Source: an uncultured Collinsella sp. (GTDB lineage: Bacteria > Actinomycetota > Coriobacteriia > Coriobacteriales > Coriobacteriaceae). From it: a stretch of 64,000 nt of DNA. Below are positions 11,533-44,604 of this stretch, piece after piece. How positions within the stretch are numbered: position 1 is the first letter of the stretch; every line of letters begins with the position of its first letter. The stretch lies in the NCBI GenBank assembly GCA_902470695.1, contig CABRHH010000008.1, forward strand, positions 8,808 to 72,807, written 5' to 3'. The notes beneath the pieces were generated by a model. That model was not told the origin of the DNA and did not search any database. It saw only the letters and a list, made by a program, of their open reading frames with translations. The position numbers and the translations under genes were made by a program.

Positions 11533-12759
11533 CTACGACGCGTTGAACACGTACCGGTCCAGGCGCCCGAACGCCTCCTGCAGCCGCGCAAACGGCAACG
11601 CGAGGTTCAGCCGAATCGTCCACTCACCGCCGAACGCGCGGCCGTCCTGCCACAGCACGCCCACGCGCACGCCCGCGCGCAACAGGTCGTCCATGCTCAT
11701 GCGGTGCTCCGCGCACCAGCGCTCGCAATCCAAAAACAGCATGTAGGTTCCCTGCGGACGCGCCACGCTCACCCCGTCAAACCGGCGCTCGATCACATCG
11801 CACGCAAAGGACACGTTCGCCTCGATCACCTGCCGCAGCTCATCGACCCACGCCGCCCCCTCGGCGCAATACGCACCCAGCAGGGCATGCATCGACAGCA
11901 CGTTCATGCTGTTGTAGTGCGATAAGCTCGATTCCTTCTCGATACGCCCACGCAACCAATCGCTGTAAATCACATGGTAGCTGCCCACAAGGCCCGCCAA
12001 GTTGAACGTCTTGCTCGGCGCGTAGAGGGCGACCGTACGCATACGTGCATCATCCGACACGCTCTGCGTCGGCACATGCGCAAAGCCGGGCAGCACGATA
12101 TCCGACCAGATCTCGTCCGAAATCACGAACACATCATGTCGGCGGAAGACATCCATCGCCCGCTCGATCTCCCAGCGCTCCCATACGCGCCCGGTCGGGT
12201 TATGCGGCGAGCAGAAAATTGCCGCGTGAATCCCCTCGTGCTCAATCCGGCGTTCCATATCCTCGAAATCCATGCGCCACACGCCCTCGGCGTCCCGCTC
12301 AAGCGGGCTGTGCACGATCTCATACCCGTTGTTTTCCAGCGTATGGGTAAATCCAACGTACGTCGGACTGTGCACCAGCACCTTATCGCCGCGGGAGCAC
12401 AGCACCCCCAACGCTGAAACCACGCCGCCCAGCACGCCGTTCTCGTAGCCGATATGCTCGGGCTTCATACCCTCAACACCGTTGCGCACACGGTGCCAAT
12501 CGATAATGCTGTCGAAATATGCATCCGTGGGCTGAAAGTACCCGAAGCACGGATGATCGACCCGCTCATGCAGGGCGCGCGTCACCGACGGCGCCGTGGC
12601 GTAATTCATGTCCGCCACCCACATAGGGATCACGTCGAACCCCTCATCGATCGCCGCGTCGCGCGGGCCCAGGCTCCCCATCGCAATCGCCGCCTTGGCA
12701 TCGAGCGCAAGCGCATCGCGGCCCTCTCGATCGATTACATCGGTGAAATTGAACTGCAT
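11533..12759 (-). CDS. MalY/PatB family PLP enzyme (cystathionine beta-lyase-like)
   Basis: PMWVADM, CSPHNPTGRVW, SDEIW and PSKTFNLAG. Confidence 0.92.
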   Translation of the reverse strand: MQFNFTDVIDREGRDALALDAKAAIAMGSLGPRDAAIDEGFDVIPMWVADMNYATAPSVTRALHERVDHPCFGYFQPTDAYFDSIIDWHRVRNGVEGMKPEHIGYENGVLGGVVSALGVLCSRGDKVLVHSPTYVGFTHTLENNGYEIVHSPLERDAEGVWRMDFEDMERRIEHEGIHAAIFCSPHNPTGRVWERWEIERAMDVFRRHDVFVISDEIWSDIVLPGFAHVPTQSVSDDARMRTVALYAPSKTFNLAGLVGSYHVIYSDWLRGRIEKESSLSHYNSMNVLSMHALLGAYCAEGAAWVDELRQVIEANVSFACDVIERRFDGVSVARPQGTYMLFLDCERWCAEHRMSMDDLLRAGVRVGVLWQDGRAFGGEWTIRLNLALPFARLQEAFGRLDRYVFNAS

Positions 12760-12844
12760 CGCACACCATCCTCAATCCGCGCACCGAGCAACGCGAAACA
12801 TCGGCGAGCAGCGGCTCGCACCCCGTTCCGCACCACGCATCAGC

Positions 12845-14161
12845 TTAACACCGCGCCGCCTGCGCCACGCGCGCCAACACGATGCGCGGGCGATCCGCCA
12901 GGTCGCGCACCACATGCACGTCGACCATGCCCGCCGTGCGACACAGTTCTGCCGCCTCGTCCAAATGCCCCTCGAACAGCTCGCAGGCAAGCAACCCCCC
13001 GGAGCGCAGCATGGCCGGAGCAGCCCTCACCAAGCGGCGGAATATGTCGAGCCCGTCGTCGCCTCCGTCAAGTGCCAGCGACGGCTCGAAATCCACCACC
13101 TCATGCGGAAGCTCCCGCATGACCGCGTGGGGGATGTAGGGCGGGTTCGAAACCAGCACGTCGAAGGTGCCCCACTCCGTCTCGCGGTCGAGCGGCGACA
13201 CCAGATTGCCCAGGCGGATATCAACCGCCTTCGCGTCGATACCCAGCGCCGCACGGTTCTTCTGCGCGAGCGCCACGGCCCGCGGCTCGATATCGGTCGC
13301 CACGCACACAACCTTGCCCGAGCGCTCATGGGCAAGCGACAGCGAGATGCACCCCGTACCGCACCCAACCTCCAGCACACGCGCGCAAGCCCCCGGCGCC
13401 ATCTCTGCGGGCTCGAATCCATCCGCGCCCGCAACGGTATCCCGATCACCTGCCGCATCGCCACTTCGCGTCTCGCCAACAACAGGGGCATCGCCCGCCA
13501 TCAACCCGGCATCATCACCGGCGGCATCGTCCGACGCATACCCCGTGGCGCGAGCGACATCGCCATCCGCGTCCGCAGGCCGCGCACAGCCATCGCCCAA
13601 CCCCCGCGCAGCGTCATCCCGACCAGCGCCAGCCTCGGATTCGATGACGCCATCAGCCGTGTTCCCGGCATTGCCCTCGGCACCGTCACCGCCCCCGGTA
13701 GCCCCCTCGCCGCGGCCAGCGCGCGCCGCTTCCTCCGCACGACGGGCGGCCTCCACCTCGCTGTTCCACGGCAGCTCAACGCGCGGACGAGCCGTCGCAG
13801 GCGCGCCCAGCACCTCGCCGTCGAGGAACTTCAGCACTTCCTCAACCAGCAGCTCTGTCTCAGGACGAGGGATGAGCACCCCGGGCTCACAGGCCACATC
13901 GATCATGCGAAAGCTCGTCTGCCCCACGATATACTGCAGCGGCTCGCCCTTCGCACGCCGCACCACCGCCGCGTGCATGGCAGCCAACTCCTCTTGAGCC
14001 AGGGGTTTATCGAAACTCATATACAGTTCGGTGCGCGTCAGCCCGGTCACGTTCGACAGCAGCCACTCAGCCGAAAGCCGCGGGCGCTCATCGCCCTTGT
14101 CCCCCAGATATTCACGCGTCCAATCCAGGCAGCGCTTGATGGTCCAGATCTCATTCGACAT
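12845..14161 (-). CDS. prmC: Release factor glutamine methyltransferase (HemK/PrmC) with a large internal insertion
   Basis: RRAKGEPLQYI, VLIPRPETE, SAM motif LEVGCGTG, NPPY and ALDGG; lies downstream of prfA. Start MSNEIWT at 14161. Confidence 0.92.
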   Translation of the reverse strand: MSNEIWTIKRCLDWTREYLGDKGDERPRLSAEWLLSNVTGLTRTELYMSFDKPLAQEELAAMHAAVVRRAKGEPLQYIVGQTSFRMIDVACEPGVLIPRPETELLVEEVLKFLDGEVLGAPATARPRVELPWNSEVEAARRAEEAARAGRGEGATGGGDGAEGNAGNTADGVIESEAGAGRDDAARGLGDGCARPADADGDVARATGYASDDAAGDDAGLMAGDAPVVGETRSGDAAGDRDTVAGADGFEPAEMAPGACARVLEVGCGTGCISLSLAHERSGKVVCVATDIEPRAVALAQKNRAALGIDAKAVDIRLGNLVSPLDRETEWGTFDVLVSNPPYIPHAVMRELPHEVVDFEPSLALDGGDDGLDIFRRLVRAAPAMLRSGGLLACELFEGHLDEAAELCRTAGMVDVHVVRDLADRPRIVLARVAQAARC

Positions 14162-14733: not shown

Positions 14734-15801
14734 TCACACCGTTGCGGCGAGCTTGGCCGCACGGTCGGCGGCGGCGAGCGCGTCGATCACGCTGCTGAGC
14801 TGATCGCCCAGAAGCACGCTGTTGTAGGTGGAGTTGAACCCGATACGGTGGTCGGTCACACGGTCCTGCGGCTGGTTGTACGTACGGATCTTCTCCGAGC
14901 GGTTGCCGTGCCCGATCTGCGCGGAGCGCTCGGCGCCCAGCTCGGCCTGCTGGCGCTCGAGCTCCATCTCGTACAGGCGCGCACGCAGCATCTGCATGCA
15001 GACTTCGCGGTTCTGAATCTGGGAGCGCTGCTCCTGGGACTGCACCACGGTGTTCGTGGGCAGGTGGGTGATGCGCACCGCCGAGTAGGTGGTGTTCACG
15101 CACTGGCCGCCGGGGCCCGAAGCGCAGTAGGTGTCGATGCGCAGGTCGGACTGGTTGATCTGGATGTCGATCTCGTCGGCCTCGGGCAGAACGGCCACGG
15201 TGGCCGTGGATGTCTGGATGCGGCCCTGGCTTTCGGTTTTGGGCACGCGCTGCACGCGGTGGACGCCCGACTCATATTTCATGACCGAGTAGACCTTGTC
15301 TCCCTCGACTTTGAACTCGATGGATTTGAAGCCGCCGGCCTCGGAGGGGCTGGAATCGAGCACCGTCATCTTCCACTTCTTGGACTCGATGAAGCGCTGG
15401 TACATCTTGAACAGGTCGCCCGCGAAGATAGCCGCCTCGTCGCCGCCGGCGGCGGAGCGGATCTCCACGATGGTGTTCTTCTCATCCATCGGGTCGCCCG
15501 GGATGAGCATGATCTTGATGTCCTCCTCGAGCTGAGGCAGCTTGGCCTCGTTCTCGGAAATGTCCATCTGGAGCATCTCCTTCTCCTCGGGGTCGGAGGT
15601 ATCGTGCAGCATCTCCTTGGCGGCCTCGATGTCATCGAGGGCGGCGATGTACTCGCGCGCGGCGTTCACCAGGTCGGTCTGGTGCGCGTACTCCTTGTTG
15701 AGACGCGTGAATTCCTTGATGTCGCTCGCAACGGAGGGATCCGAGAGCTTCTTCTCGAGCTCCTGATAGGCGATGATGAGTTTTTCCAGCTTGTCGCGCA
15801 T
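14734..15801 (-). CDS. prfA: Peptide chain release factor 1
   Basis: RF1 PxT motif (VQRVPKTES), GPGGQ, ESGVHR and RTYN; AAGGAG RBS. Confidence 0.98.
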   Translation of the reverse strand: MRDKLEKLIIAYQELEKKLSDPSVASDIKEFTRLNKEYAHQTDLVNAAREYIAALDDIEAAKEMLHDTSDPEEKEMLQMDISENEAKLPQLEEDIKIMLIPGDPMDEKNTIVEIRSAAGGDEAAIFAGDLFKMYQRFIESKKWKMTVLDSSPSEAGGFKSIEFKVEGDKVYSVMKYESGVHRVQRVPKTESQGRIQTSTATVAVLPEADEIDIQINQSDLRIDTYCASGPGGQCVNTTYSAVRITHLPTNTVVQSQEQRSQIQNREVCMQMLRARLYEMELERQQAELGAERSAQIGHGNRSEKIRTYNQPQDRVTDHRIGFNSTYNSVLLGDQLSSVIDALAAADRAAKLAATV

Positions 15802-15941: not shown

Positions 15942-16374
15942 GGTTCCTCCCTGTTGTGCTGGAAGCTATGATACCCAACCCCGGGGCTGCGGCAAACACC
16001 CCGGCAAAACGGACATATCGACAGGCATCTCGGCGAAATGCCGAATAGAAGCGCGGAGGGACGGGGCGGACCGATGTTGGTCGGGAGCCGGAAAGGAGAT
16101 GCGCCGCTGCTGGCCGGGAGCCGAAAGGAGATGCGCCGGTGCTGGCCGGACTGCCCGGTGGCAAAGCTGCCTGCGGAGCGGGTTGGGGCAGGTCGGGAGA
16201 TGCGCCGGCGTGGGATGGGGGGATGCGGTGGTGGCGGGATGGGGGGTGTGGCGGCGGGACCGGGCCGGAACGGGCGGCAGCAGGACCGGGTCCGGAACGG
16301 GCGGCAGCAGAACGAGGCCGGAACGGGTGGTGGCGGGGCGGAGCCGGAACGGAAGCCGCGAGGCCGAACAGCGC

Positions 16375-16561
16375 ACTGTCAGCTGTGTACGATTGTCAGC
16401 TGTGCACGATTGTCAGCTATGTACGATTTGTTAGCGCTGCCATCGAAAGCTGATACATTCCTGAGTTCCATATAGCTAATCTACCTGGTATTTCTACGAT
16501 ATTCATATGCAGAAAGACGTATGTGTTTTGCCATACCTGACAATCGTACACAGCTGACAGT
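16375..16561. repeat. MITE-like element with a 25-bp perfect TIR and 17-bp tandem iterons
   Basis: ACTGTCAGCTGTGTACGATTGTCAG at 16375-16399 is inverted at 16537-16561; three 17-bp units span 16377-16427; the interior is AT-rich. Confidence 0.75.
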
Positions 16562-16774
16562 CACCCGTGCACGACAGGCTCGACGCCTGCGGGCGTTAGA
16601 CCTCAGTGGCACCGTCGGTGCCAGCACCTCCACGCGTATCGGCATCCCCATGCGCACCGCCATCGCCAGCATGTCCGTTGCGGCTGACGCGGGCGACGGC
16701 GCCCGAACCGCTGCGCAGGCCATCGCCCCCGTCCGCGCTACCGTCGTCATCACATCGACGCCGCCCTCATCACC

Positions 16775-17167
16775 TCAAGCGGAGCCGCCAGCGCCCCCGT
16801 CGCCATCGCCGCAGGCGGTCTCATCGGGGCAGGCTATCTCCAGGATATTCGTCTCGCTGCCCTGCAGCAGGTAGGTGCGGTCGCTGCCGCAGTGCGGACA
16901 GACGCGCCCGTGCTCGACCGTGACGTAGGTCCGTCCGCATGCCTCGCACAACGTCACGGCGTCGACCCGCTCGATCACCAGCTCGGCGCCGCGCATCAGG
17001 TCGTTTTTCGCGCATGCCCAGGTCCAGCAGTCGGTGAGGTAGCTGGGGATGATGCCCGACACCTCTCCCAGCTCCAGCGTGACCGACGACACGCGACGCA
17101 ACCCGTTTTCGGCGGCAACGCGCTCCACGCTACGGATGATATGAAATACAATACCCAGTTCGTGCAT
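16775..17167 (-). CDS. hypA: Nickel metallochaperone HypA
   Basis: N-terminal MHE Ni-binding motif, LELGEVSG and two CxxC (CEAC, CPHC). Confidence 0.92.
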   Translation of the reverse strand: MHELGIVFHIIRSVERVAAENGLRRVSSVTLELGEVSGIIPSYLTDCWTWACAKNDLMRGAELVIERVDAVTLCEACGRTYVTVEHGRVCPHCGSDRTYLLQGSETNILEIACPDETACGDGDGGAGGSA

Positions 17168-17522
17168 ACCGTTCCCATCGTCATTCAACAGAGCGCGGCC
17201 TCCTGCCGGCGCGAACAGGCAATCGCCCGCACGCCCAGCACCGCATTCGCGCGCCGAGGCGCCTGCCTCGGATGCGAGCAACTGAGGTCGAAGGCGGCCG
17301 CTCGCACGGAACGGGGAGACAACCGACCTGCCGCCCGTCGCCTCCCCGCCAAAGGCCAAGGCCAGACGGCCAACGGCCAAGGCCGAAAGCCAAAGGCCGA
17401 ATACCGAGAACCGAGGGCCAGCCGCCAGGGGCGAGAAGTCCAGCGCCGGCACCGGCACCAGCGCCCAGCGACAAACACCGGGCGCCAGCGGCCAGCAGCC
17501 CAAAGCCAAAAGCCGAGACGAC

Positions 17523-20300
17523 CTACTTCGCCCCCTTCTTCCCGAAGCGGATCTTGATCTCGCGCTTGAGCGCGTACTTGGCCAGCATCGGCAGCTTCTT
17601 CTCGTACTTCACCATGCGCGAGCACTCCGGATGCTCCCGGTGCAGATGAATCGCGTCGAACGCGCACTTCGTGGTGCACAGGCCGCAGCCGATGCACTTG
17701 TTCTCGTCCACCACGCTCGCACCGCACCCCAGGCAGCGCGCGGTCTCGCGGCGCACCTGCTCCTCGCTGAACGTCTCCGCATACTCCGCGAACGGACCAC
17801 CCGCCTCCTCGCTGCTGCGGTGAGCCGGCGTCTCGCGCCGGGCGGTATCGTAGCTGCCGAACGCCACGGCCTCGCGGTCGATGGCGCGGTAGGAGCGTTG
17901 ATTGCGCCCGATGGTGAGCGTGGCGCCGCGCACGAAGCGATGCAGCGAGACGGCCGCCTCATGGCCGGCGGCAATCGCGTCGATCGCGAACGACGGCCCG
18001 GTGTAGACGTCACCGCCCACAAAGATGTCGGGCTCCGCGGTCTGATAGGTCTGTGCGTCGGCCACCGCGCCGCCGCCCCGCCCAAACGCAACCGCCGTGC
18101 CCGCCAGCAGGTTGTCCCACTCGATGCACTGCCCGATGGAGAACACCACGCGGTCGCACGCCACCGTGCGCGTCTGCGCGTCGTCGAACACCGGGGCGAA
18201 TCTGCCCTCGTCGTCGAACACCCGCAGGCAGCGGCGGAACACGATGCCCGCCACCCGGCCGCCTTCCACAACGACCTCGACAGGCCCCCAGCCGTTGTGG
18301 ACGCAGGCGCCGTCGGCCTCCGCCTCCTCGATCTCCTCGGCGCTCGCCGGCATCTCCCCGGCGCTCTCCAGGCAGAACATCTCAACGCCGTCCGACCCCA
18401 AGCGTGCTGCCGAGCGCGCCGCATCGATGGCGACATTGCCGCCGCCCACCACGACCGTCCGGCCCCGCAGGCCGTCGAAGCCGTCCTCGGCGCAGGTGCG
18501 CAGGAAGTCCACCGCCGTGAACACACCCTCGGCATCCTCGCCCGCAATGCCGGGCAAGCGCCCGCCCTGGCAGCCGATCGCCACGTAGAACGCGCTGAAT
18601 CCCTGCTCGCGCAGCTCGGCGATCGTCACATCGCGCCCCACCTCGACACCGTAGCGGAACTCCGCCCCCATCTGGGCGATGATGTCCACCTCGGCCTCGA
18701 TCACGCGCTTGTCCAGCTTGTAGCTGGGAATGCCGTAGGTGAGCATGCCGCCCGGGCGCGCGCTCTTCTCGAACACCACGGGCTTGTAGCCGCGCTCGGC
18801 CAGGTAGTACGCGCAGGACAGACCCGCCGGACCCGCGCCGATGATGGCGATCTTCTCGTTCATCGCACCGCTGGTGGAGGGCACCACGGGCTCGGGCACG
18901 TAGCGATGCTCGGCCACCAGATCCTGCTCGGCGATGAACTTCTTCACCTCGTCGATGGCCACAGCAGCGTCAACCGCGCCGCGCGTGCAGGCATCCTCGC
19001 AACGACGGTTGCAGATGCGCCCGCACACCGCCGGCAGCGGGTTTTCGCGCTTGATGAGGGCCAGCGCGTCGCGATAGCGCCCCTGGGCCGCCAGCTTGAG
19101 GTAGCCCTGCACCGCCACATGTGCCGGACAGGCCGTCTTGCAGGGCGCGGTGCCGGTGTCGTAGGTCTCGATGCGGTTCTTGTTGCGGTAGTCGGGGCTC
19201 CACTTCTCCGGCCCCCACTTCACCGCATCGGGCAGTTCCTGCTTGGAATAGCTGGGGACCTCACCGGTACGCGCGTCGCACAGCTTCTGGCCGAGCTTCA
19301 CCGCGCCGGCCGGGCACACCTCGACGCAGCGGCCACACGCCACGCAGGCGTCCGCCTCGGTGCGCGCCACGTAGGCCGAGCGCGACAGGTTCGGCGTGTT
19401 GAACAGCTGCGAGGTGCGCAGTGCATAGCACACGTTGACGTTGCAGTTACAGATGGCGAAGATCTTGTCCTCGCCGTCGATGTTGGTGATCTGGTGCACG
19501 AAGCCGTTGTCCTCGGCGCGATGCAGGATCTCGTAGACCTCCTCGCGCGTGATGTAGCGGCCGCGGTCGGTTTCCACCACGTAGTCGGCCATGTCGCCCA
19601 CCGCGATGCACCAGTCGGCCGGGTCGTCGCCGCAGCCCTGGCCCAGCACCTCGCGGCTCATGCGGCACGAGCAGGCGCTCGCGGCGTACTTGCCGTCGTA
19701 TTTGTCCAGCCAGTGCTCGATGTGCTCGATCGACACGGAGCGGTCCTCCATGGAGATGGCCTGCTCCACCGGAATCACGTGCATGCCGATGCCCGCACCT
19801 CCCGGCGGCACCATGGGCGTGGCGCGCGCCAGGGCACCCTTGCTGGCCTGCTCGAAGAACTTCGCCAGCACCGGGTGCTCCTGCAGCTGGCTCATACGCA
19901 TGTTGAGGAACTCGGCCGAACCGGGCACCAGCATGGGCAGGACCCACTGCTTGGTGCGGGTCTCGTTCTCCCAGTTGTACTCGATGAGGCCGATGTAGCT
20001 CATCTCGTCCATCAGCTTCTCGAGCGCCACCGGGTCCATGCCGGTGAGCTTGATGAGCTCGGTCAGCGTGTAGGGGCGACGCATCTTCATCTTGAGCAGG
20101 ACGTCGGCCATTTCGTCGGTGGTGACGGCGGCAAACGACCAGTATTCGAACGGCTTGAGCTCCTTGCGACCGAGCATGCGGTTGGTGCAGTGCTCGCACA
20201 GGGCCACGATCTTCTCGCGCGGCTGGGCGGGCAGCTCGGGCACGAACTCCGCGCCGATGTCAGGCTCGGTAAAGGAGATGCCAGGTCCGTTGACGATCAT
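17523..20300 (-). CDS. Multidomain FAD/NAD(P)-dependent Fe-S oxidoreductase (Cys-rich N-domain + ferredoxin + GltD-like module + ferredoxin)
   Basis: CVACGRCVEVCP; APCKTACP, CGRICNRRCEDAC; GAGPAG, GGGNVA; C-terminal RCLGC and CIGCGLCTTKC. GAAAGGA RBS before ATG 20300. Confidence 0.9.
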   Translation of the reverse strand: MIVNGPGISFTEPDIGAEFVPELPAQPREKIVALCEHCTNRMLGRKELKPFEYWSFAAVTTDEMADVLLKMKMRRPYTLTELIKLTGMDPVALEKLMDEMSYIGLIEYNWENETRTKQWVLPMLVPGSAEFLNMRMSQLQEHPVLAKFFEQASKGALARATPMVPPGGAGIGMHVIPVEQAISMEDRSVSIEHIEHWLDKYDGKYAASACSCRMSREVLGQGCGDDPADWCIAVGDMADYVVETDRGRYITREEVYEILHRAEDNGFVHQITNIDGEDKIFAICNCNVNVCYALRTSQLFNTPNLSRSAYVARTEADACVACGRCVEVCPAGAVKLGQKLCDARTGEVPSYSKQELPDAVKWGPEKWSPDYRNKNRIETYDTGTAPCKTACPAHVAVQGYLKLAAQGRYRDALALIKRENPLPAVCGRICNRRCEDACTRGAVDAAVAIDEVKKFIAEQDLVAEHRYVPEPVVPSTSGAMNEKIAIIGAGPAGLSCAYYLAERGYKPVVFEKSARPGGMLTYGIPSYKLDKRVIEAEVDIIAQMGAEFRYGVEVGRDVTIAELREQGFSAFYVAIGCQGGRLPGIAGEDAEGVFTAVDFLRTCAEDGFDGLRGRTVVVGGGNVAIDAARSAARLGSDGVEMFCLESAGEMPASAEEIEEAEADGACVHNGWGPVEVVVEGGRVAGIVFRRCLRVFDDEGRFAPVFDDAQTRTVACDRVVFSIGQCIEWDNLLAGTAVAFGRGGGAVADAQTYQTAEPDIFVGGDVYTGPSFAIDAIAAGHEAAVSLHRFVRGATLTIGRNQRSYRAIDREAVAFGSYDTARRETPAHRSSEEAGGPFAEYAETFSEEQVRRETARCLGCGASVVDENKCIGCGLCTTKCAFDAIHLHREHPECSRMVKYEKKLPMLAKYALKREIKIRFGKKGAK

Positions 20301-20498
20301 GTGAAGGTTCCTTTCCTCTGAAAGCAGGCGATGTATGAAGTACAGGCGAGGGCCTAGGTGGGCGGGCCGCAGGTGTGGCTCCGGCAGAACGCGGAGGCTG
20401 GAGGCCTTTCGCAGCAGGTCCCGGCAGCGCGCCGGGCCTTTCGCAGCAGGTCCCGGCACGCTCCGGGCCTCCCGTAGCCGATCCTGGTCGTCGCCCCT

Positions 20499-21233
20499 TT
20501 AGGCCTTCCAGGCGGCAACGGCCGAGCGCAGCCAGGCGGCCCACTCATCGATGCCCTCGCCGGTCTTGGCGCTGATGGGGATGATGGTGGCGTTCGGATT
20601 GCGCGCGAGGATGTTGGCGCGCACGCGCTCCATGCTGAAGGTGTCGAACACCGGTAGCGCGTCGATCTTGTTGATGAGCACCACGTCGCAGATGCTGAAC
20701 ATGAGCGGATACTTGAGCGGCTTGTCGTCGCCCTCCGGCACCGACAGGATCATCGCGTTCGCGCTGGCGCCGGTGTCGAACTCCGCCGGACACACCAGGT
20801 TGCCCACGTTCTCCAGGATCGCCAGGTCAACGGCGAGGGCACCCCTCGCCTCGGCATCACCGATTGACCCCGTCCCCGTTTGCAGGTCGTCCTGCGTCAA
20901 CAGGCCGTTGAGCCCCTGCTCGGTCATATAGGCGTCCAGGTGGCACATGCCACCCGTATGCAGCTGGATGGCGCGCACGCCGGTGTCGGCGATCGTGCGC
21001 GCGTCCACGTCGGAATCGATATCCGCCTCCATGACGGCAATCGACAGCTCGTCGCGCAGCGCCTCGATCGTGCGCGTGAGCGTGGTGGTTTTACCCGAGC
21101 CCGGACTCGACATCAGATTCAGGAGAAACATCCCCCGTGCGCGCAGGCGATCGCGCAGCTCCTGCGCCTTGCGGTCATTGTCCGCAAAGACGCTCTCCTT
21201 GACTTCAAGCACACGCACGTCGGCCATGTGCAC
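20499..21233 (-). CDS. hypB: Nickel incorporation GTPase HypB
   Basis: LMSSPGSGKTT, TGGMCHLDA, ENVGNLVCPAEFD, EGDDKPLKYP, NKID and SAKTGEG. Confidence 0.95.
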   Translation of the reverse strand: MHMADVRVLEVKESVFADNDRKAQELRDRLRARGMFLLNLMSSPGSGKTTTLTRTIEALRDELSIAVMEADIDSDVDARTIADTGVRAIQLHTGGMCHLDAYMTEQGLNGLLTQDDLQTGTGSIGDAEARGALAVDLAILENVGNLVCPAEFDTGASANAMILSVPEGDDKPLKYPLMFSICDVVLINKIDALPVFDTFSMERVRANILARNPNATIIPISAKTGEGIDEWAAWLRSAVAAWKA

Positions 21234-21258
21234 CCCTCCCTGTAGCGGCGAACTACTA

Positions 21259-21296
21259 TTGACACTTTGTCAAATTCTATATTGACGAATTGTCAA
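21259..21296. promoter_or_regulatory. Two 15-bp palindromic operators (TTGAC-N5-GTCAA) in the hypB/tetR divergent region
   Basis: TTGACACTTTGTCAA at 21259-21273 and TTGACGAATTGTCAA at 21282-21296. Confidence 0.75.
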
Positions 21297-21349
21297 CAAT
21301 ATTCAAGACTGTATTCGTCCAACGGTCGATTCGACGGGAGGAAAGGCAT

Positions 21350-21979
21350 ATGGCAAGCCAGCATGAGGCCCATCAGCGCGAACGGCACACGCACGAGGAC
21401 CGGCGCGCCGAGATCCTCGAGGCGGTGCGCGCCATCTGCGCGGGCGAGGGCATGGGCCGCCTGTCCGTCTCGGGCATCACCGAGCGCGTGGGATGCACGC
21501 GTTCGCTGTTCTACCACTACTTCCCCACCAAGGAGGCGGCGCTCGACGCTGCGCTCGAGGACACCATCGATTCGTTCATCGAGCGTCTGAAGGCATGGAA
21601 CGCCCAGCGCACGCGCGGCGATATCGACGGCGCGCTCACCAGTGCCGCCGAGCTGCTCACATCGCTTATCAGCGAACGCTACGAGCTGTCGCGCTCGCTG
21701 GAATGCGGCACCGCAGCCGGCGTGTACACCGCATTTGTGCACCGGATAGCCGAGCGCGTGGCGCGCTACATCTGCGATACCACGGTGGTTGACTTCGCGC
21801 GCTACCACGAGGTCTGCATCGACCACGTATACGAGACCATGTACGTGCTGATCACGGGGCTGATCATGTACCTGCGTTCGCACCCGGACGCGCCGGCCGC
21901 GACCGTCAAGGACATCATCGCCAGCACCCTGCATCTTGGGCACTTTATCGAGAAGCAGGCGGAGGAGCGCCCCTTGTAG
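21350..21979 (+). CDS. TetR/AcrR family regulator
   Basis: HTH (ITERVGCTRSLFYHYFPTKE); GAAAGG RBS. Confidence 0.92.
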   Translation: MASQHEAHQRERHTHEDRRAEILEAVRAICAGEGMGRLSVSGITERVGCTRSLFYHYFPTKEAALDAALEDTIDSFIERLKAWNAQRTRGDIDGALTSAAELLTSLISERYELSRSLECGTAAGVYTAFVHRIAERVARYICDTTVVDFARYHEVCIDHVYETMYVLITGLIMYLRSHPDAPAATVKDIIASTLHLGHFIEKQAEERPL

Positions 21980-22467
21980 GGAATGTTCCGCTCCGGGGTG
22001 AGGGGCGCGGCGCACCAGGCTCTGGCAGCGCCTCCCGTGTGGCGCGCGGACGGCGGGAAGGATGGTGCGGTGCGGGCCGCATGCCCGCGACGGGCCGTGC
22101 GCCCGCTGCGACAGCGCCCGCGTCTCAAGCGCGGTCCCACTCCGACAAACCCCGGCGGCCTACGCCCCACCCCGGTTGCCCCGGCGACCCTCGGCGCGCG
22201 CCCGGCGGCCCACCCCCCCCCGGCAGCAGCCGCGACGGCCCTGCAGCCCTGGCCGCAACCGGCGGCCCCGGGCAGCGGCCAGTGCCCCATCCCGACGGCC
22301 CCGCGCAGCTCCCGGGCAGCGGCCCGCGTCCCATCCCGACGGCCCCGCGCAGCTCCCGGGCAGCGGCCAGCTTTCCATCCCGACGGCCCCGGCGGCCTAC
22401 GCCCCATCATTGCCGACCATGCGCCCGGGCAATCGAACCCGAGCGCTCCAACGAAAGGAGAACCTGT

Positions 22468-23442
22468 ATGTTATTCGAGGTGTACGGAGAAAACGCCGCG
22501 TTCCAGTGGCTCGGGTGGGCCCTGGTGTTCGTGGGCCTCATCGCCGCCAACGAGGTGGCGCGGCGCTCCAAGATCGGCGGCATCGCCTGCTTTCTCGGCC
22601 TGCCCACCGTGCTGACCGTCTACTTCATCGCAATCTACGTGGGAGCGGCCGCGGGCGCCGATTGGGCGCTCAACAACCCCACGTACGTCCACATGAACAG
22701 CTGGTTCCACTACGCCAAGCTTTACGCCGCCACCGCCGGCTGCATCGGCTTCATGATGCTGAAATACGGCTGGGGCAAGCTCGGACGCAGCGAGGCGTTC
22801 AAGGTCTTCCCCTTCGCCATCGTGGCCATCAACATCCTGATCGCCGTGGTGTCCGATTTCGAGAGCGCGGTGCGCGCGTTCGGCACCACCTGGGTGAGCT
22901 CCGAGGGCGTCACGCTCATGGGCGGCTGGCACAACGTCCTCAACGGCGTTGCCGGTCTCATCAACATCTTCTGCATGACCGGCTGGTGGGGCATCTACCG
23001 CTCCAAGAAACGCGAAGACATGCTGTGGCCGGACATGACGTGGGTCTACATCGTGGCCTATGACCTGTGGAACTTCTGCTACACCTACAACTGCCTGCCC
23101 ACGCATGCCTGGTACTGCGGCCTGGCGCTGCTGCTGGCGCCCACGGTGGCGAACTTCTTCTGGAACAAGGGCGGCTGGATCCAGAACCGAGCCAACACGC
23201 TGGCGCTGTGGTGCATGTTCGCGCAGGTGGTGCCCGCGTTCCAGGATTACTCCGTGTTCAGCACCAACTCTGTGAACAACCCGAACGTGAACTTGGCTGT
23301 GTCCGCCGTGGCGCTCGCCGCCAACATCGCAGCGCTTGCCTACATCGTCTACCGCGCCAAGAAGCTCGGCGTGAACCCCTACAAGCACGAGGTCTTCCGC
23401 GGCACGCGCGACTTCGAGCAGGCCGTCGCCCGCGCCGAGTAG
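22468..23442 (+). CDS. Conserved multi-pass membrane protein (resembles DUF5692 family)
   Basis: AAAGGAG RBS; about 8 hydrophobic segments; WFHYAKLY, DMLWPDM, YDLWNFCYTY and WIQNRANTL. Family name recalled, not searched. Confidence 0.75.
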   Translation: MLFEVYGENAAFQWLGWALVFVGLIAANEVARRSKIGGIACFLGLPTVLTVYFIAIYVGAAAGADWALNNPTYVHMNSWFHYAKLYAATAGCIGFMMLKYGWGKLGRSEAFKVFPFAIVAINILIAVVSDFESAVRAFGTTWVSSEGVTLMGGWHNVLNGVAGLINIFCMTGWWGIYRSKKREDMLWPDMTWVYIVAYDLWNFCYTYNCLPTHAWYCGLALLLAPTVANFFWNKGGWIQNRANTLALWCMFAQVVPAFQDYSVFSTNSVNNPNVNLAVSAVALAANIAALAYIVYRAKKLGVNPYKHEVFRGTRDFEQAVARAE

Positions 23443-23806
23443 CGCAGGAAAGACGGGCATCGGGGCGCGGCTGTTGGTGCCGGGGCACAGGCAGAGCGTG
23501 GCGCAAGCAGGACGGGCATCGGGGCGCAAGCCGTTGGTGCCGGGGCGCAAGCGGGGCGCCCGAGCGACTCCATAGACAGCGCGGCGGCAAGGCGCGGAAG
23601 TGCATGCAGGCGGTCGATGATTGCAAAACGGTGGCCGAGCGGCAGCTGGTGTCGCGGCGGCAAGGCGCGGGAGAGCGCGCATACGGTCGTCCCGCGCCCC
23701 GCAAGCAGGCTGCAGCAACAAGCGGTCACCTGTACCAGCGCATCGGCCGCGGCGCGGCCACGTATCCCAACAGGCAAATCGGCCGCGCGCCCCAACGGAC
23801 ACACCA

Positions 23807-24230
23807 AGGTTCGGGTTTCGGCCATCCGAAGAAATGGGGTTCGGACCGCGTCCGTCCAGGGAAATTGGGTTCGGACCGTGTCCATCTGAGCAAGTAGGGT
23901 TCGGCTTGCGTCCGTTTGAGAAAGCAAGGTTCGGCTTCTGTCCGTTTGAAAATGTAGGGTTCGTCTTCTGTCCATCTGAGAAAACAGGGTTCGCCCTGTG
24001 TCCGTTTGGGGCAGTTTTTTGCCTCTAGATGGACAAAGTCCGCACCCGGAATCGCCGGATGGACTAATTCCGAACCCGAGATTGTCGGATGGTCGAAGCC
24101 CGCACCCGCGATGTGTCGATGGACGAAATCCGAACCCGGACCGCATCGATGGACACAAGCCGCGCCTGGGGATGCACCGATGGACACAAGCCGCGCCCGG
24201 AGATGCACCGATGGCTGAAAGCCGAACCCG
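23807..24230. repeat. 30-bp-phased palindromic repeat element, copy B (7 + 7 units)
   Basis: GGTTCG every 30 bp from 23807 to 23987, centre GCAGTTTTTTGCC, then inverted GATGGAC-N6-CG(A/C)ACCC units. Confidence 0.9.
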
Positions 24231-24292
24231 GAACGGGGCGGGACTGCCCGCTCTCGGACCTCGGACGCGAACTTCATCCATCCACAGAAACA

Positions 24293-24535
24293 GGGTTCGG
24301 GTCTAAGCCATCCACAGAAACAGGGTTCGGGTCTGAGCCATCCACAGAAACAGGGTTCGGGTTTGAGCCATCCGGAAAAACCGGGTTCGCCTTCCGTCCA
24401 TCTGGAGCCGTTTTTCATCTCTGGATGGACGAAACCCGAACCCGGGATGTGTCGATGGACGAAACCCGAACCCGGAATTGCTGGATGGACGAGCAGCGAA
24501 CCCGGAATCGCCAGACGGACGGGATACGCACCCGG
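24293..24535. repeat. 30-bp-phased palindromic repeat element, copy C
   Basis: GGGTTCG at 24293, 24323, 24353 and 24383; centre GCCGTTTTT; inverted units from 24437. Confidence 0.9.
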
Positions 24536-24650
24536 GTTTGCCGAACGGCCAGGAGATAGACCGGGGCCGTCAAAAGGCTGGAAACCGAGCCGGGAATCGC
24601 CAATCGGCCAAAGGGTGAACCCAAATGCACCGGCGCCCCACCAACATGCA

Positions 24651-25003: not shown

Positions 25004-28000
25004 TTACCTGCGGCGGCGCTTGGCCACCACGATACCGCCCACGACCAGCACCGCACCGATGGCAACCACCGGGATGATCGCCAGCAGCGCATCGTCGCCC
25101 GTCTGGACGAGGTTGCCGCTCGGCTTGTTGCCCGGCTTCTGAGCACCGGCGTTGTTGCCGCCGTTGGCACCGGAACCACCGTTGCCGTTATCGCCGGTCC
25201 CGCCGTTGCCGTTGTCGGCCCCGCCGTTGTTACCGCCGGTCCCGCCGTTGCCGTTGTTGTCGCCGGATCCGTTGTCGCCGCCGTTGTCCCCACCGTTGTT
25301 GCTACCCGTGGTGGTCAGCTTCTTGCTCACCACATCGGACACGTTGCCGGCCGCGTCGAACGCACGCACGGACACCTCGTAGGCCGTACCGGGCTCAAGC
25401 CCCTCGAGCGTATAGCTCGTGGCGTCCGGACCGAGCTTGGCCACGCTCTTACCGTTCACGAACACCTCGTAGCCGGCAACATCGGTGTCGTCGGAGGCGG
25501 GCGTCCAGGTCAGCTTCGCGCTGGTGTCGCCCACCTCGCCGATCTCCACGTTGCCGGGGACCGTCGGCTTCTCGGTATCGCCGGCATCGGTGCCGCCGTC
25601 CTTGACCGTCACCTTGAGGTTGTCGAGCACGAAGTCGCCCGAACCGATCGCCGTGTTGCCGCTGTTGCCCGCGGAGTACAGGCCGATCCAGGTCAGACCA
25701 TCGTCTGCGCCGGTGACCTCCATCTTCACGTGCTGGGTGGTCTGCTTGCCGTCGACGTAGGTCACCGGGAGGAACTCGGTGGGAACCGTGTAGCTCTCGA
25801 TCTTCTCCGTATCGCCGTCGTCCTCGCCATGACCCACGATCATCTGGTACCGAGCCAGCTCGCCGGTCTGGTAGTCGAACTCAACCGTGTAGGTCTTGCC
25901 CGGCTCGAAGGCGAGCGTCTGGGGCGTCGTCTGATACAGCAGACCCTTGCGCCCGTCGTGGTACTTGAGCGACCAGTTGCCGTCGATGGCGTCGTCGAGC
26001 TGCTTGTTGTGCCAGCCGGTCTGCGTGTAGGGCGCGTGCTTCTCGGAGAGATGCGCCACCGCGTCGCCGCCGTAGGAGGACGGACCGATCACGAACGGGT
26101 ACAGGCCGGAAACAGCGTTCTCGAAGTCCTGGCTGAAATTGCCCTTGGCATCCTGCACCGGGAACTTCTCGTTCTCCACGTAGCGGATGTTGTCCACATA
26201 CGTGCTGCCCGCGCCCGCAGCGCGCTTCACCGTGAGCGTGGCGGTGTCGGAGCCGGCCGTGAACTTCACGTAGATGCGCGTCATGTGGGACGCCTGCAGG
26301 TTGCTCGTGTGCTTCTCGTCGCTGGCAGTGTAGTTCTGCGCCACCGAGCGGCCCGTGGAGCGCGCGGCCTTGGAGTCGCCCGAAGCAACCTCGATGGTCG
26401 CTTTCGCATCGGACTCGTTGTCGATATAGAGCTCGGCCACGTAGGTCTTGCCGGCGGTGAGGCCGGTGAGCTTGGTGGACACCGCCACATCCTTGGCCGG
26501 GCTGTTGATGGCCAGGCGCTGGTCGCCGGTGCCGGCGGTCTCGACGCGCACGGAGGCATCCGTCACGTCGCCGCTCCACACCTTGGCGTTGAGCTGCTCA
26601 TTGTTCTCGTAAGCGTTGAAGCCCGGGTCGGTCACGCCGGTGCCCTCGCCGAAGTCGACGGTGTCAGCCGTCGGGACCTCGGTCTTGGAGCTGGCCTTCA
26701 CGATCACGTAGGGCACGCCGGCCTCGGCCTTGAAGGTGAAGGCATCGGACGCAGGCAGGTCCTTGACCTTCACGCGGCCCTGGTCGGTGAGCTTGTAGAG
26801 CACCAGGTTCTGGCCCTTCCAGCCGTCGAGCAGCGTCCAGGTGGTGGAGTCGCCGTCGACGTTGTAGTGGTAGAGCTTCTCCTCGCCGTTCTCGTCGGTC
26901 CACGGCAGCAGGTAGGCGTCGTCGTCGAGGACCTTCACGCCCTTGAGGGTGATCTCGCGCTCGCACACGGCGTCGTTGCGCTGCTGCGCATGACGGGTCA
27001 CCACGACCTCGTCACCGGCCTCGTTCTTGAGCTTGATCTGCTTCTCGTGGTTGCCCACCGGCGAGACGTCGCCCTCGGCGCCGCTGTAGTTGGTCCAGTC
27101 GGTCACCTGGTAGTGCTGCAGGAAGCGGGTGGGCAGGTTCTCCAGGTAGGTGGTCTTCACGTAGGTGTTGAAGTCCTGCTCGTTGCCCCAGCCCTCGAAG
27201 CCCTCCAGCGTGTAGCCGGACAGCAGCGGGTTGTTCATCGCCGTCTTGGCGTGGCTTGCGGTGGGACCGGCGTTGTTGGGCGAGATGTCGCGCTGGTCGT
27301 TGCGCAGGAAGCGCGCGATGTCGCTGTTGATGCCCTTGGTGCCGGTGCCGCCGTACTGGATCTCGGTGGCCCAGTGGCTCCAGGTGGAGTCGTACTCGCC
27401 CTCGTTCGGGAACTCCGTGGAGAAGCGCCAGCCCAGCGAGTTGATCTGCTCGGCGATGCGGCGGGTCTCCCAGGCATCCTGGTACCACACGTCGAGATAG
27501 ATGAAGTCCATGTTGTTGTCGCGCTTCGCGGCGTCGGCCTTCAGCTCGGCCATCGATGCCGCGGCAGCGCCGGTCTCGGCCGGATCGCCCACGTACTCGC
27601 CCTTGCCGAAGTCCTTGTTCGCAAAGTGCGTGCCGTTGATGCGGTCGTAGAGCTGCACGAAGCGGTTCCAGCGCGCGCTGGAGCCCAGGTCCCACAGCTT
27701 GTCGATGGCAACGGACTGGTCAAGCCAACCCCAGCCGTTGCCCTGGCCCTTCACCATGCGCTCGTTGAAGGACTTCGACTCCTGGTAGGCCTCCTGCGCG
27801 TTCACGTGGATGCCCACCTGGGTGTTGTACTGGTGCGCCACCTTGATGAGGTCCTGGAACCCGGAAACGCCGCCTTCCTTCTCGGAGATGTCGGCGTACT
27901 CGGAGTTCGCAGAGTCGTGGCCCTCGTTGCCGTAGCCCTTGAGCAGGAGCGCCTGCGGCAGGCCGTCGGTGATCAGCGAGACCTTCTTCAGGTTGTCGGC

Positions 28001-41434: not shown

Positions 41435-42832
41435 CTAGTGCCGGCGCGCCAGCTCAAGCACGGCATCCACCACACCCTGCAGCGGCAGCTTCTCGCGACG
41501 GGCGATCGCCTCACAATCCTCGTGCTCGGGCGAGACGCGCTCATCGGCACCCGGCACCTGCACGATCTTCACGCGCACCGGTCCCCAGGGGGTTTCGACC
41601 TCCTCCAGGCGGCGCGGCAGCACCACGCGCTCCATCACCTGACGGCGCAGGCCCGTCGTGGTGGTCTCGCGCAGCACGACCTCCTGCAGGCGCGCCTCGT
41701 CCTCCGGCGCGCAGATTACCTGCAGCTGCCAGGCCGGACGGCCCTTCTTCGTATAGAGGGGCAGCCAGTGCACCTCGCGGGCGCCCGCCTCGCGCAGCAG
41801 GTCGGCCGCATAGGCGAGCTGCTCGCCCGCGCAATCGTCGATGTCGCACTCCAGCTTGACCACCGTGGTGGGCGGGTCGATCTCGGCAGACAGCGAGGTG
41901 GACGCAACGCCTTCCGGCCGGCCCGACGGCGCCTCCAGCAGCGCGGCGCGCAGCACCGAGGGGATCTCGTAGGTGCGCTTGCCCGCGCCCAAGCCCACCG
42001 CAAGCTCCCGGGCATGCTCGGGCAGCTCGGTCCAGGGCTCCAACGCCGCCACGAGCGCCGCGCCCGTGGGCGTCACCAGCTCGCCCTCCGCGTGGCCCGG
42101 AGACAGCGGCAGCCCGTGCGACAGGCAGATACTCAATGTAGCCGGCACCGGAACCGGAATGATGCCGTGCTGGCAACGGATCGTCCCGCAGCCGTCGATC
42201 AGCAGCGGCACCACCGCCCGGTCGATATGCAGGCTGTCGAGCAACACGGCGGCAGCCACGATATCCACGATCGAGTCGACGGCGCCCACCTCGTGGAACG
42301 CCACCTCATCAACCGACACCTCGTGGGCGTCGGCCTCAGCCTCGGCCAGGATGCGGAAGGTGCGCCGCGCCAGCACGCGCGCGCCCTCGGTCATATCCGC
42401 CGCGTCGATAAGCGACAGGATATCGGCCAGGCCGCGGTGCTCGTGGGCATGGCCGTGCGCGGCGGCCTCCGCATGCCCCGCCGCCACCGCGCCGGCAGCG
42501 GCGGCAGGGCCGGCCTCGCTCGTACCCTCGCCCGTCACCCGTCCCGCATCCTCGCCGTGGAGGTAGGCCATGTCGTGATCGTGATTCTCGTGCGCCTCGT
42601 CCAAGACCACGTCGAAGTCGCAGCAATCCTGCCCCGCCTTCTCCGCGCGGCTCACGCGCACCTCGAACCCGCCGACCGGCAGGCTCGCCAGCGCCCGATC
42701 CATGGCCGCACGGTCGGCGCCCACATCGAGCAGGGCTCCTACCAGCATGTCGCCCGCGATGCCCGCCGAGCAATCCAGCCACAGCACGCGCTCGGCGGCT
42801 GCAGCGCCAGCGCACCTGTTCTCGTTTTCCAT
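41435..42832 (-). CDS. larC: Nickel pincer cofactor nickel-insertion protein LarC (single fused ORF)
   Basis: GIAGDMLVGAL, His-rich segment, FHEVGAVDSIVDI, HGIIPVPVPA, ELVTPTGA, KKGRP, ETTTTGLR and PEHED. Confidence 0.92.
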   Translation of the reverse strand: MENENRCAGAAAAERVLWLDCSAGIAGDMLVGALLDVGADRAAMDRALASLPVGGFEVRVSRAEKAGQDCCDFDVVLDEAHENHDHDMAYLHGEDAGRVTGEGTSEAGPAAAAGAVAAGHAEAAAHGHAHEHRGLADILSLIDAADMTEGARVLARRTFRILAEAEADAHEVSVDEVAFHEVGAVDSIVDIVAAAVLLDSLHIDRAVVPLLIDGCGTIRCQHGIIPVPVPATLSICLSHGLPLSPGHAEGELVTPTGAALVAALEPWTELPEHARELAVGLGAGKRTYEIPSVLRAALLEAPSGRPEGVASTSLSAEIDPPTTVVKLECDIDDCAGEQLAYAADLLREAGAREVHWLPLYTKKGRPAWQLQVICAPEDEARLQEVVLRETTTTGLRRQVMERVVLPRRLEEVETPWGPVRVKIVQVPGADERVSPEHEDCEAIARREKLPLQGVVDAVLELARRH

Positions 42833-42834
42833 CG

Positions 42835-43599: not shown

Positions 43600-43746
43600 C
43601 CTCGCCGTCCCTCCTCATACCGTCGCGCATCGATGATATGCCTGGACCTTACTCCAAGCGCAAGCTGCGCGGACATGCCGCGCAGCGCATCCAACACCGC
43701 GCGCACCGCAGTCCAACCCACGGTGTCAATCGCTTGCACGATGTGC

Positions 43747-44415: not shown

Positions 44416-44604
44416 CTGCACCTCGTTTTCGCCCGTCTACCTGCCCACTTATGCTGTGGGTAGCGCGTTTTTACGCGCAGCAGCCTACCGCTCGGACACA
44501 TCAGGTACAGTACCATTTGTTACATACATTTGTGTGCGAAGAGAACACCGGCGAGTTCCATAGTGCTGCCGAACCAACAACACCCTTATGAGAAAGGCCT
44601 CCCG

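Follow-up and report, generated by a model that had tools for sequence, protein, structure and literature searches.

A HypB- and HypA-flanked iron–sulfur flavoprotein of the IsrA family in Collinsella, a candidate nickel-dependent redox module

Introduction

HypA and HypB deliver nickel to [NiFe]-hydrogenase (HypA/HybF in Escherichia coli) and to urease (Helicobacter pylori), and a hypA–hypB pair that flanks a gene of another kind raises the question of which enzyme it serves. Such a pair lies in the 64,000-nucleotide stretch of DNA analysed here (the window, G000:C8:8808-72807), which belongs to a 2.62-Mb genome with 65% guanine plus cytosine (GC) and proteins closest to Collinsella. The two genes bracket that of a 925-residue iron–sulfur (Fe-S) flavoprotein, referred to as OX, and are accompanied by a divergent TetR-family regulator gene and a gene for a DUF5692 membrane protein. 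An initial annotation, made from the sequence letters, had described these five genes; Pfam and NCBIfam searches together with translation confirmed all of them, with their motifs and coordinates. Its statement that hydrogenase, hypCDEF, and urease genes are absent from the window also held, with no match among the 37 window open reading frames (ORFs) scanned.

Contig C6 of the same genome encodes an Ech-type group-4 [NiFe]-hydrogenase, whose large subunit carries the RVCGIC and DPCISC motifs and adjoins the small subunit, membrane subunits, and a ferredoxin. In addition, hypF and hypD are present on contig C17, and a second tandem hypA–hypB pair was found on contig C2 (L004 9284-11402), after tatC and before a topoisomerase gene. 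As the genome has both a hydrogenase and a second hypAB pair, the question is which client the OX-flanking pair serves. The second pair is located beside neither the hydrogenase (C6) nor hypF and hypD (C17).

Results and discussion

Phyletic pattern of OX, hydrogenase, and hyp genes

The OX N-terminal domain (N-domain), the [NiFe]-hydrogenase large subunit (PF00374), hypB, and hypA were searched for in 201 Coriobacteriaceae genomes. Results revealed the OX N-domain in 176 of these genomes (162 of the 171 of Collinsella; four of six genera, OX being missing in several genera) and the hydrogenase large subunit in 194. The number of hypA genes equalled the sum of OX and hydrogenase presence in 199 of the 201 genomes: two in the 169 genomes with both, one in the 24 with hydrogenase and no OX, one in the five with OX and no hydrogenase (G017, G044, G047, G148, and G003, each 99% complete), and zero in the single genome with neither (G187, 99% complete). 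The rule failed only in G028, which is 89% complete and has one hypA, and in G034, where two hypA and no hydrogenase match were found at 81% completeness. As for hypB, 15 genomes had two copies and 185 had one, and it was lacking only in G187. This 1.7-Mb Collinsella genome serves as a natural negative control, since it has neither OX nor the hydrogenase large subunit and neither hypA nor hypB.

In all five hydrogenase-free carriers, the sole hypA and the sole hypB adjoin OX. Such neighbourhoods, with hypA and hypB beside OX where [NiFe]-hydrogenase is lacking, were what the initial annotation had proposed to look for, and these relatives supply them. None of the five matched HypD or Prismane/carbon monoxide dehydrogenase (CODH) models; the only urease signal was one marginal match of 22.8 bits (G003), which is no real urease, and LarA was clear only in G044 and G047, with none in G017. 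The pair could not be assigned to a HypABCDEF set working with hydrogenase, as all five relatives keep it next to OX without HypD (hypC and hypE were not searched). Judged by their OX and HypA sequences, the hydrogenase-free carriers span at least three lineages.

Linkage was further analysed in 80 loci from species-representative genomes, all Collinsella-like, which were obtained by an alignment search with the N-domain and whose neighbours were identified by local tblastn. hypA was found directly 3' of OX in 75 loci; in four of the five without a downstream hypA the contig stops within OX, and L071 holds a partial OX only. TetR and DUF5692 genes were detected in 78 and 76 of the 80 loci, respectively, and hypB adjoined OX in just five, namely L013 (C. 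stercoris), L016, L017, L018, and L021 (Enorma). Across 13 additional regions, hypA was adjacent in all 13 and hypB was local in 11, being absent in G033 and G056. On these counts (75/80 and 13/13 versus 5/80 and 11/13), HypA is the constant partner of OX and HypB the variable one, a pattern in which HypB is dispensable at the OX locus when another hypB exists in the genome. Two of the loci with hypB, L017 (G201, a record titled Roseburia sp.) and L018 (G202, Bacteroidaceae bacterium), consist of a hypB–OX–hypA contig with an OX N-domain 81% identical to that of the window, and may reflect bin contamination or mislabelling rather than transfer. Neither G201 nor G202 had a PF00374 match, and, their completeness not being known, they were not counted as evidence.

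HypA and HypB proteins of the OX locus

The window hypA gene (16775-17167, minus strand) encodes a protein of 130 residues that starts with MHELG, carries the Cys pairs CEAC and CPHC, and scores 94.7 bits against PF01155 (cut-off 28.9) and 61.9 bits against the equivalog model TIGR00100 (cut-off 88.1). Residues M1, H2, E3, C74, C77, C90, and C93 were invariant in all 19 OX-linked HypAs compared. The hypB gene (20499-21233, minus strand) encodes 244 residues and exceeds the equivalog cut-off of TIGR00073 (222.5 versus 121.2 bits); its product has the P-loop GSGKT as well as GGMCH and ENVGNLVCP, keeps the CH...C metal site of the G-domain, and shows no N-terminal metal motif. The chaperone residues of both proteins are intact. 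The locus resembles known HypA/HypB systems in its MHE start, zinc-type Cys pairs, GTPase with CH...C, and the existence of client-specific HypA paralogs, and differs from them in that its apparent client is neither hydrogenase nor urease, HypD was not found in any of the five hydrogenase-free carriers, and its HypA forms a separate clade.

This clade was recovered in a maximum-likelihood tree of 38 HypA sequences, comprising 19 OX-linked ones (from about 90) and 19 others that do not adjoin OX or come from OX-lacking genomes. The two sets were parted by a branch with 100/100 support, with the window HypA on the OX-linked side. HypA copies from low-GC contigs also fell within the OX-linked clade, which spans unrelated GC classes, contigs of 39-48% GC included. 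The five hydrogenase-free genomes, the hypA rule in 199 of 201 genomes, and the separate HypA clade thus give good support to the prediction that HypA and HypB of this locus serve OX and not the hydrogenase.

Domain architecture of OX and its N-terminal Cys6 region

OX is encoded at 17523-20300 (minus strand), its 925 residues being counted from MIVNGPG; the reading frame is open upstream to 20459, and homologs start at this Met. Residues 1-370 (19191-20300, minus strand) form an N-terminal domain without a Pfam model, and no Pfam or NCBIfam model matches residues 1 to about 300. The domain holds a Cys6 site region (residues 205-295; 19416-19688, minus strand) with C210-x-C212-R, C231, H269, C284-N-C286, and C291. 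The motifs SACSCR, DWC, GFVH, and ICNCNVNVC, singled out in the initial annotation, are present in the translation and fall on columns invariant across 28 diverse homologs. In these homologs and in a second set of 31, C210, C212, R213, C231, E263, G266, H269, C284, N285, C286, and C291 were invariant, and so were C319, C322, C325, and C329 of the following ferredoxin-type motif. This motif (C319-x2-C322-x2-C325-x3-C329 plus C341; 19278-19364, minus strand; PF00037) overlaps a Pfam Fer4 match at residues 316-334; C341 was kept in five of eight compared OX proteins.

The remainder of the protein is an electron-input module of known type. A Fer4_20 domain (residues 384-460; 18921-19151, minus strand; PF14691, 74.2 bits) of the domain II type of dihydropyrimidine dehydrogenase (DPD), with two [4Fe-4S] clusters, is followed by a Pyr_redox_2 domain (residues 483-779; 17964-18854, minus strand; PF07992, 84.9 bits; also PF13450), which represents a GltD-like module for flavin adenine dinucleotide (FAD) and nicotinamide adenine dinucleotide (phosphate) (NAD(P)). 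A C-terminal ferredoxin motif (C856, C859, C869, C872, C875, and C879; 17634-17744, minus strand; PF12837 and PF00037; Pfam Fer4 at residues 863-884) was kept in all eight compared OX proteins. Residues of about 373-889 match PRK12771 and GltD-like models, and OX remains below every curated whole-protein cut-off, the best being PRK12771 (NF009410; 425.2 versus 516 bits). OX shares with NfnB, GltD, and DPD the NAD(P)H-FAD-[4Fe-4S] module (PF14691, PF07992, and the PRK12771 match), but differs from the NfnB/GltD type in its 370 extra N-terminal residues with the Cys6 site, its C-terminal ferredoxin motif, and the lack of a partner catalytic subunit gene near OX.

A search of 1.84 billion cluster representatives with residues 1-370 yielded 2114 representative relatives at E<=1e-3. 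Among them are full-length proteins of about 900 residues with identities of 29-51%, and others of about 370-390 residues that stand alone; the same region shares 91% identity with a protein of C. stercoris. Two motif subfamilies were distinguished among the N-domains, CNC[NDAQHS]xxxC (the OX type) and GEGCGH plus CNCCxCxC. A possible coupling between losing the extra Cys and gaining HypA was considered and dropped, as P0142-type proteins have the three-Cys motif without hypA nearby.

An AlphaFold2 model of the N-domain (predicted local distance difference test (pLDDT) 76.7) shows a winged helix (about residues 50-125) followed by the Cys6 subdomain, of alpha/beta type, and by the first ferredoxin motif. 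Structure searches with this model returned only winged helices of ArsR/SmtB/MarR-like type (Z 6-7.3, residues 21-152; Foldseek E>=0.012). The Cys6 subdomain alone (pLDDT 72.2) gave no clear fold match in the PDB (best Z 3.7, Foldseek E>=1.4), which is no evidence of a new fold. By sequence, residues 1-370 matched generic polyferredoxin motifs in the PDB only (e.g., 9sfi_T, via a CxxCxxCxxxCP repeat), which is uninformative for residues 1-300. As regards CODH/acetyl-CoA synthase (ACS) with CooC/AcsF, the likeness is a functional analogy only, namely a Cys-rich site in which nickel might be combined with Fe-S and which a dedicated NTPase-dependent chaperone would load; no sequence or fold relation was found, Prismane matches were lacking in all five hydrogenase-free carriers, and the best structural hits of the Cys6 subdomain were unrelated proteins.

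Relationship of OX to the putative isoprene reductase IsrA

The architecture and surroundings of OX recall IsrA, which is described here after Kronen et al. (2023, mSystems, PMC10134865). IsrA is a 901-residue FAD-dependent oxidoreductase and putative isoprene reductase of Acetobacterium wieringae ISORED-2, a genome reported there to lack [NiFe]-hydrogenase and hypCDEF, and the proteins of the isr operon, including HypA, HypB, and a ferredoxin, increase by 6-11 log2-fold in response to isoprene. IsrA is given four canonical [4Fe-4S] sites and a "cluster V" of six cysteines with the CxC pairs C180/C182 and C254/C256, which was proposed as a nickel site and which the same paper likened to the ACS A-cluster. 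Its "clade 9" homologs come from Firmicutes, Spirochaetes, Tenericutes, Actinobacteria, and other phyla, and the neighbourhoods of 988 IsrA homologs contain HypA, HypB, DUF5692, and TetR at frequencies of 0.73, 0.56, 0.40, and 0.21, respectively. For the published tree, sequences with an identity of >=50% and a coverage of >=75% were used to enlarge the initial data set; the supplementary tree file lists IsrA (VUZ27132.1) with 137 mentions of Collinsella, including C. stercoris EEA90901.1 (PMC10134865).

As far as these descriptions go, both proteins have about 900 residues. In each, DPD-domain-II clusters and an FAD/NAD(P) module are accompanied by two additional ferredoxin motifs and by about 270-300 N-terminal residues that lack annotation. 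The six cysteines are clustered in sequence in both, and the CxC pairs of OX (C210/C212 and C284/C286, with C231 and C291 in addition) have the same 74-residue spacing. The neighbours reported for clade 9 (HypA, HypB, TetR, and DUF5692) are all four present in the window and in its relatives, and both OX and IsrA also occur in genomes without [NiFe]-hydrogenase (that of IsrA lacking hypCDEF as well). Unlike the isr operon, the window has one hypA instead of two and no stand-alone 350-residue ferredoxin gene, and with its TetR and a hypothetical protein the locus rather resembles the Acetobacterium "cluster II" of that paper. With the architecture, the six cysteines in two CxC pairs, and the gene neighbourhood all found, and a C. 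stercoris homolog in the tree file, OX is taken to belong with IsrA in "clade 9" of the Fe-S flavoproteins of GltD/NfnB-like type; OX and IsrA are likened here through the published description and the tree-file listing, and nothing shows isoprene reduction by Collinsella.

This placement bears on the view of the locus as a candidate new nickel-dependent redox system in the initial annotation. The dedication of HypA and HypB to the flavoprotein is supported, whereas the novelty is not, because Kronen et al. (2023) had already published the family, the four neighbour families, and the proposal of nickel at the Cys-rich site. The locus is a genuine member of a kind already in print, though biochemically unproven, and its detection is a rediscovery. 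What has been added for Coriobacteriaceae is the hypA-count rule, the hydrogenase-free carriers, G187, the dispensability of HypB, the HypA clade, and a candidate pair of TetR operators; Tables S7-S12 of PMC10134865 may include neighbourhood data per genome, with some overlap with the present counts.

Regulation and organization of the locus

The TetR-family gene (21290-21979, plus strand; PF00440, 35.2 bits) diverges from the hypB–OX–hypA operon. Translation probably begins at the ATG at 21350, since homolog alignments begin at residues 14-36, which leaves 116 bp between hypB and the likely start. This interval holds two palindromes, at 21259 and 21282, with the consensus TTGACN5GTCAA (together 21259-21296; 15 bp each, 23 bp apart). 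The whole 2.62-Mb genome has six such sites, two of them at this locus. Exactly two palindromes, always paired 23-24 bp apart, were found in 79 of the 80 related loci, where the pair precedes OX if hypB is absent and precedes hypB if it is present. In G047 (L126), hypB is relocated beyond tetR–DUF5692 and a third palindrome lies about 74 bp upstream of it, and in G017, G148, and G044 a third palindrome is located ahead of the DUF5692 gene. No TTGACN5GTCAA site was found in the low-GC contigs, two of which have a GntR gene instead.

With a TetR_N helix-turn-helix domain (PF00440) and palindromes in the divergent promoter region of its own gene, the regulator fits the type of TetR with a palindromic operator. 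The palindromes are probable TetR operators, and since the conserved operator-like pair ties the five genes together, DUF5692, tetR, hypB, OX, and hypA are read as one probable regulon. The initial annotation had taken TetR and the membrane protein as a hint at a hydrophobic or host-derived substrate; the palindrome pair upholds their link to the module, and the hint at the substrate stays plausible. The DUF5692 gene (22462-23442, plus strand) encodes 326 residues (PF18948, 457.9 bits), and its product has no sequence relative in the PDB at E<=1. For related strains, all five genes (hypA, OX, hypB, tetR, and the DUF5692 gene) are covered at 90-99% identity by contigs of three RNA-Seq libraries from a single study, and one contig bridges hypB and OX.

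The intergenic spacers are unusually long, rich in repeats, and more variable than the genes: the contigs of related strains replace or skip them or have insertions there, with the genes still 90-99% identical. The OX/hypA spacer (17168-17522, minus strand) is unusually long and strain-variable, measuring 355 bp versus 3-250 bp in relatives, and shows insertions and deletions in related strains' contigs. The hypB/OX spacer (20301-20498) is likewise long and laden with repeats. Three tandem 44-nt repeats (family D6; 22267-22398) lie inside the 480-bp tetR–DUF5692 spacer, which is replaced or skipped in related strains. A terminator-like hairpin was noted at 17524-17510; a promoter and terminator scan gave counts near those of shuffled controls and was not used as evidence.

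Homologs beyond Coriobacteriaceae

A metagenome scan with P0142, a relative at 49% identity that clusters with an Acutalibacteraceae protein, yielded 23 loci. Contigs of 39-48% GC keep OX–hypA (L142, L143, L144, and L150), with gaps of 6-30 bp in L142, L143, and L144. Their gene orders are OX-hypA-DUF5692-GntR-hypB-hypB in L142 (39% GC), a second OX paralog followed by hypB-OX-hypA in L143, and OX-hypA in L144 and L150. The HypAs of L142, L143, and L144 are 45-59% identical to the window HypA versus 23-31% to the genome's other HypA. Two details of these contigs are of note. The two OX paralogs of L143 (1795-4611 and 6866-9727) are 62% identical to each other and have one common hypB–hypA set, and in L142 the two hypB-like genes stand in tandem (11980-13318) after OX-hypA-DUF5692-GntR.

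In a sample of 151 genomes from the phylum of G201, 21 had N-domain matches, which besides G201 were mostly stand-alone proteins of 300-480 residues. Some genomes encode as many as 10 such stand-alone N-domain homologs (frames mostly of 340-480 residues). They are present in, e.g., G218, G233, G263, G278, G292, G334, and G348, and those of loci L094-L122 recall the 350-residue "ferredoxin" of the isr operon as described in PMC10134865.

Proposed function and alternative explanations

On balance, we regard it as probable, with appreciable reservation, that the locus is a TetR-controlled module (DUF5692/tetR diverging from hypB–OX–hypA) in which OX is an IsrA-family enzyme and HypA matures its fifth metal site, likely with nickel. 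In the proposed mechanism, FAD in the GltD-like module would be reduced by NAD(P)H, and electrons would travel through four [4Fe-4S] sites of ferredoxin type and reach a fifth metal site, formed by the six invariant cysteines (two CxC) of the N-terminal domain, where a substrate, probably hydrophobic and unsaturated, would be reduced. The adjacent HypA may act as a client-specific paralog that contacts OX and matures the fifth site, most likely by nickel insertion. HypB would be the GTPase that loads HypA, and could be supplied from elsewhere in the genome. TetR, bound to the paired TTGACN5GTCAA sites, would release the module in the presence of the substrate or of a related compound.

Several observations weigh against this reading. 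The phyletic counts are not independent events, as most of the 201 genomes are related, being close Collinsella species. The window HypA lies under the TIGR00100 equivalog cut-off, and the six cysteines could merely hold an Fe-S cluster. The linkage is not universal, since HypA is near 73% and HypB near 56% of the published homologs (PMC10134865), and in the scan beyond Coriobacteriaceae ten contigs with the OX 3' end and downstream flank showed no hypA or hypB within the contig sequence. Nine of these are P0142-type (L137-L141, L145, L147, L148, and L154; 55-59% GC) and the tenth is L146, with downstream flanks of up to 7 kb in the full-length contigs L139, L140, and L146. No Cys or His column parts hypA-linked from unlinked OX, a weak C341 excepted, and 29 loci with distant stand-alone N-domain paralogs (L094-L122) had no hypA within 1.5 kb. 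Regarding nickel, our literature search found no metal analysis of IsrA or any homolog, and a 2026 bioRxiv preprint on Pelotomaculum keeps the nickel dependence of IsrA as a suggestion (10.64898/2026.02.25.708027). Regarding regulation and expression, the case for TetR binding consists of the position and conservation of the palindromes, and the RNA-library contigs are a weak hint, because such libraries can hold DNA and contigs cannot show transcripts.

Three other explanations were weighed. It is unlikely, though the least so of the three, that the HypA/HypB-like pair matures OX without nickel, by handling another metal (zinc, iron, or cobalt) or by serving as scaffold or GTP-driven chaperone while an unusual Fe-S cluster is assembled at the Cys6 site. 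The genomic evidence speaks to the client relation and not to the identity of the metal, and the window HypA, apart from its sub-threshold equivalog score, sits in a long-branched separate clade. The G3E GTPase family, to which HypB belongs, serves zinc, cobalt, and iron clients too, a kinship illustrated here by weak ZigA, UreG, and MeaB matches. However, the MHE sequence invariant in all OX-linked HypAs compared is the HypA nickel site (cited in PMC10134865), and HypB keeps its G-domain metal site and passes the hypB equivalog cut-off, both of which favour nickel.

That the window hypB and hypA are instead redundant paralogs for the Ech-type hydrogenase of contig C6, with OX merely lying between them or acting as its electron partner, is highly improbable and is largely refuted by the phyletic pattern. 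The 24 OX-lacking, hydrogenase-bearing relatives have one hypA only, of the other clade; the five genomes with neither a hydrogenase nor a HypD match retain precisely the pair that flanks OX; and G000 has one PF00374 match versus two hypAB pairs. This explanation could draw on the genuine group-4 hydrogenase, hypF, and hypD of the genome, and on the HypA/HybF-type paralogs that E. coli has for different hydrogenases (cited in PMC10134865). Equally little credence is due to the possibility that the pair supplies nickel to another enzyme, such as LarA, encoded 20 kb away, or a nickel glyoxalase, its place beside OX reflecting co-regulation only. A second nickel system, larC/larB/larA, does exist in the window (41435-45879), and LarA was detected in G044 and G047, but LarA adjoins its own nickel-insertion protein LarC, and G017 keeps hypB–OX–hypA without a match to LarA, urease, CODH/Prismane, or hydrogenase. 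In addition, hypA stands a few bases from OX in the unrelated low-GC contigs, with no lar genes among the scanned ORFs (glyoxalase and other nickel proteins were not searched).

A wider claim, which we put forward tentatively and consider rather doubtful as a whole, is that the IsrA family, OX included, forms a new class of nickel enzymes, in which a Cys6 site, possibly Ni-Fe-S, is built by a client-specific HypA with HypB and without HypCDEF and reduces unactivated C=C bonds of hydrophobic compounds; the gut substrate would then be host- or diet-derived, sensed by TetR, and handled by the DUF5692 protein. The core of this idea has already been proposed in print. If nickel truly enters the Cys6 site, the few nickel enzymes known would gain a new class in this family, and the HypA/HypB pathway would extend to a client that needs none of HypCDEF. 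Given its near-universal presence in the abundant gut genus Collinsella, the family could act on a relevant host or dietary compound. Coriobacteriaceae also offer natural experiments for the published hypothesis, with OX without hydrogenase, hydrogenase without OX, and neither (and then no hypA or hypB), and include culturable strains. Among the culturable OX carriers are C. stercoris DSM 13279, which has a local hypB, and C. aerofaciens ATCC 25986, which does not; strains of the C. aerofaciens type have a single hypB.

Other features of the window

The lar region mentioned above consists of larC (Ni_insertion; 41435-43144, minus strand), larB (AIRC; 42835-43599, minus strand), a Crp-type regulator gene between larB and larA (43747-44421, minus strand), larA (44530-45879, plus strand), and a MIP channel gene (46244-46978, plus strand). 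The whole (41435-46978) is a complete-looking lactate racemase module with LarC as its own nickel-insertion protein. The larC and larB ORFs as called overlap by about 300 bp, and their start positions are doubtful.

Repeats flank the OX locus on both sides. Between prfA (14734-15801) and hypA, a non-coding stretch of about 970 bp contains tandem repeats of 26-32 nt (16080-16363) and a 30-nt inverted repeat (16375-16562), 93% complementary and with its arms 127 nt apart. The 1.5-kb gap from the DUF5692 gene to the next gene holds dense tandem repeats with a period of about 30 nt (23790-24540), whose units with GGGTTCGG...CCATCC occur in both orientations and form long imperfect inverted repeats. 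The gene that follows (25004-30409) encodes an 1801-residue GH101 endo-alpha-N-acetylgalactosaminidase with carbohydrate-binding and fn3 domains, which is likely a mucin O-glycan enzyme.

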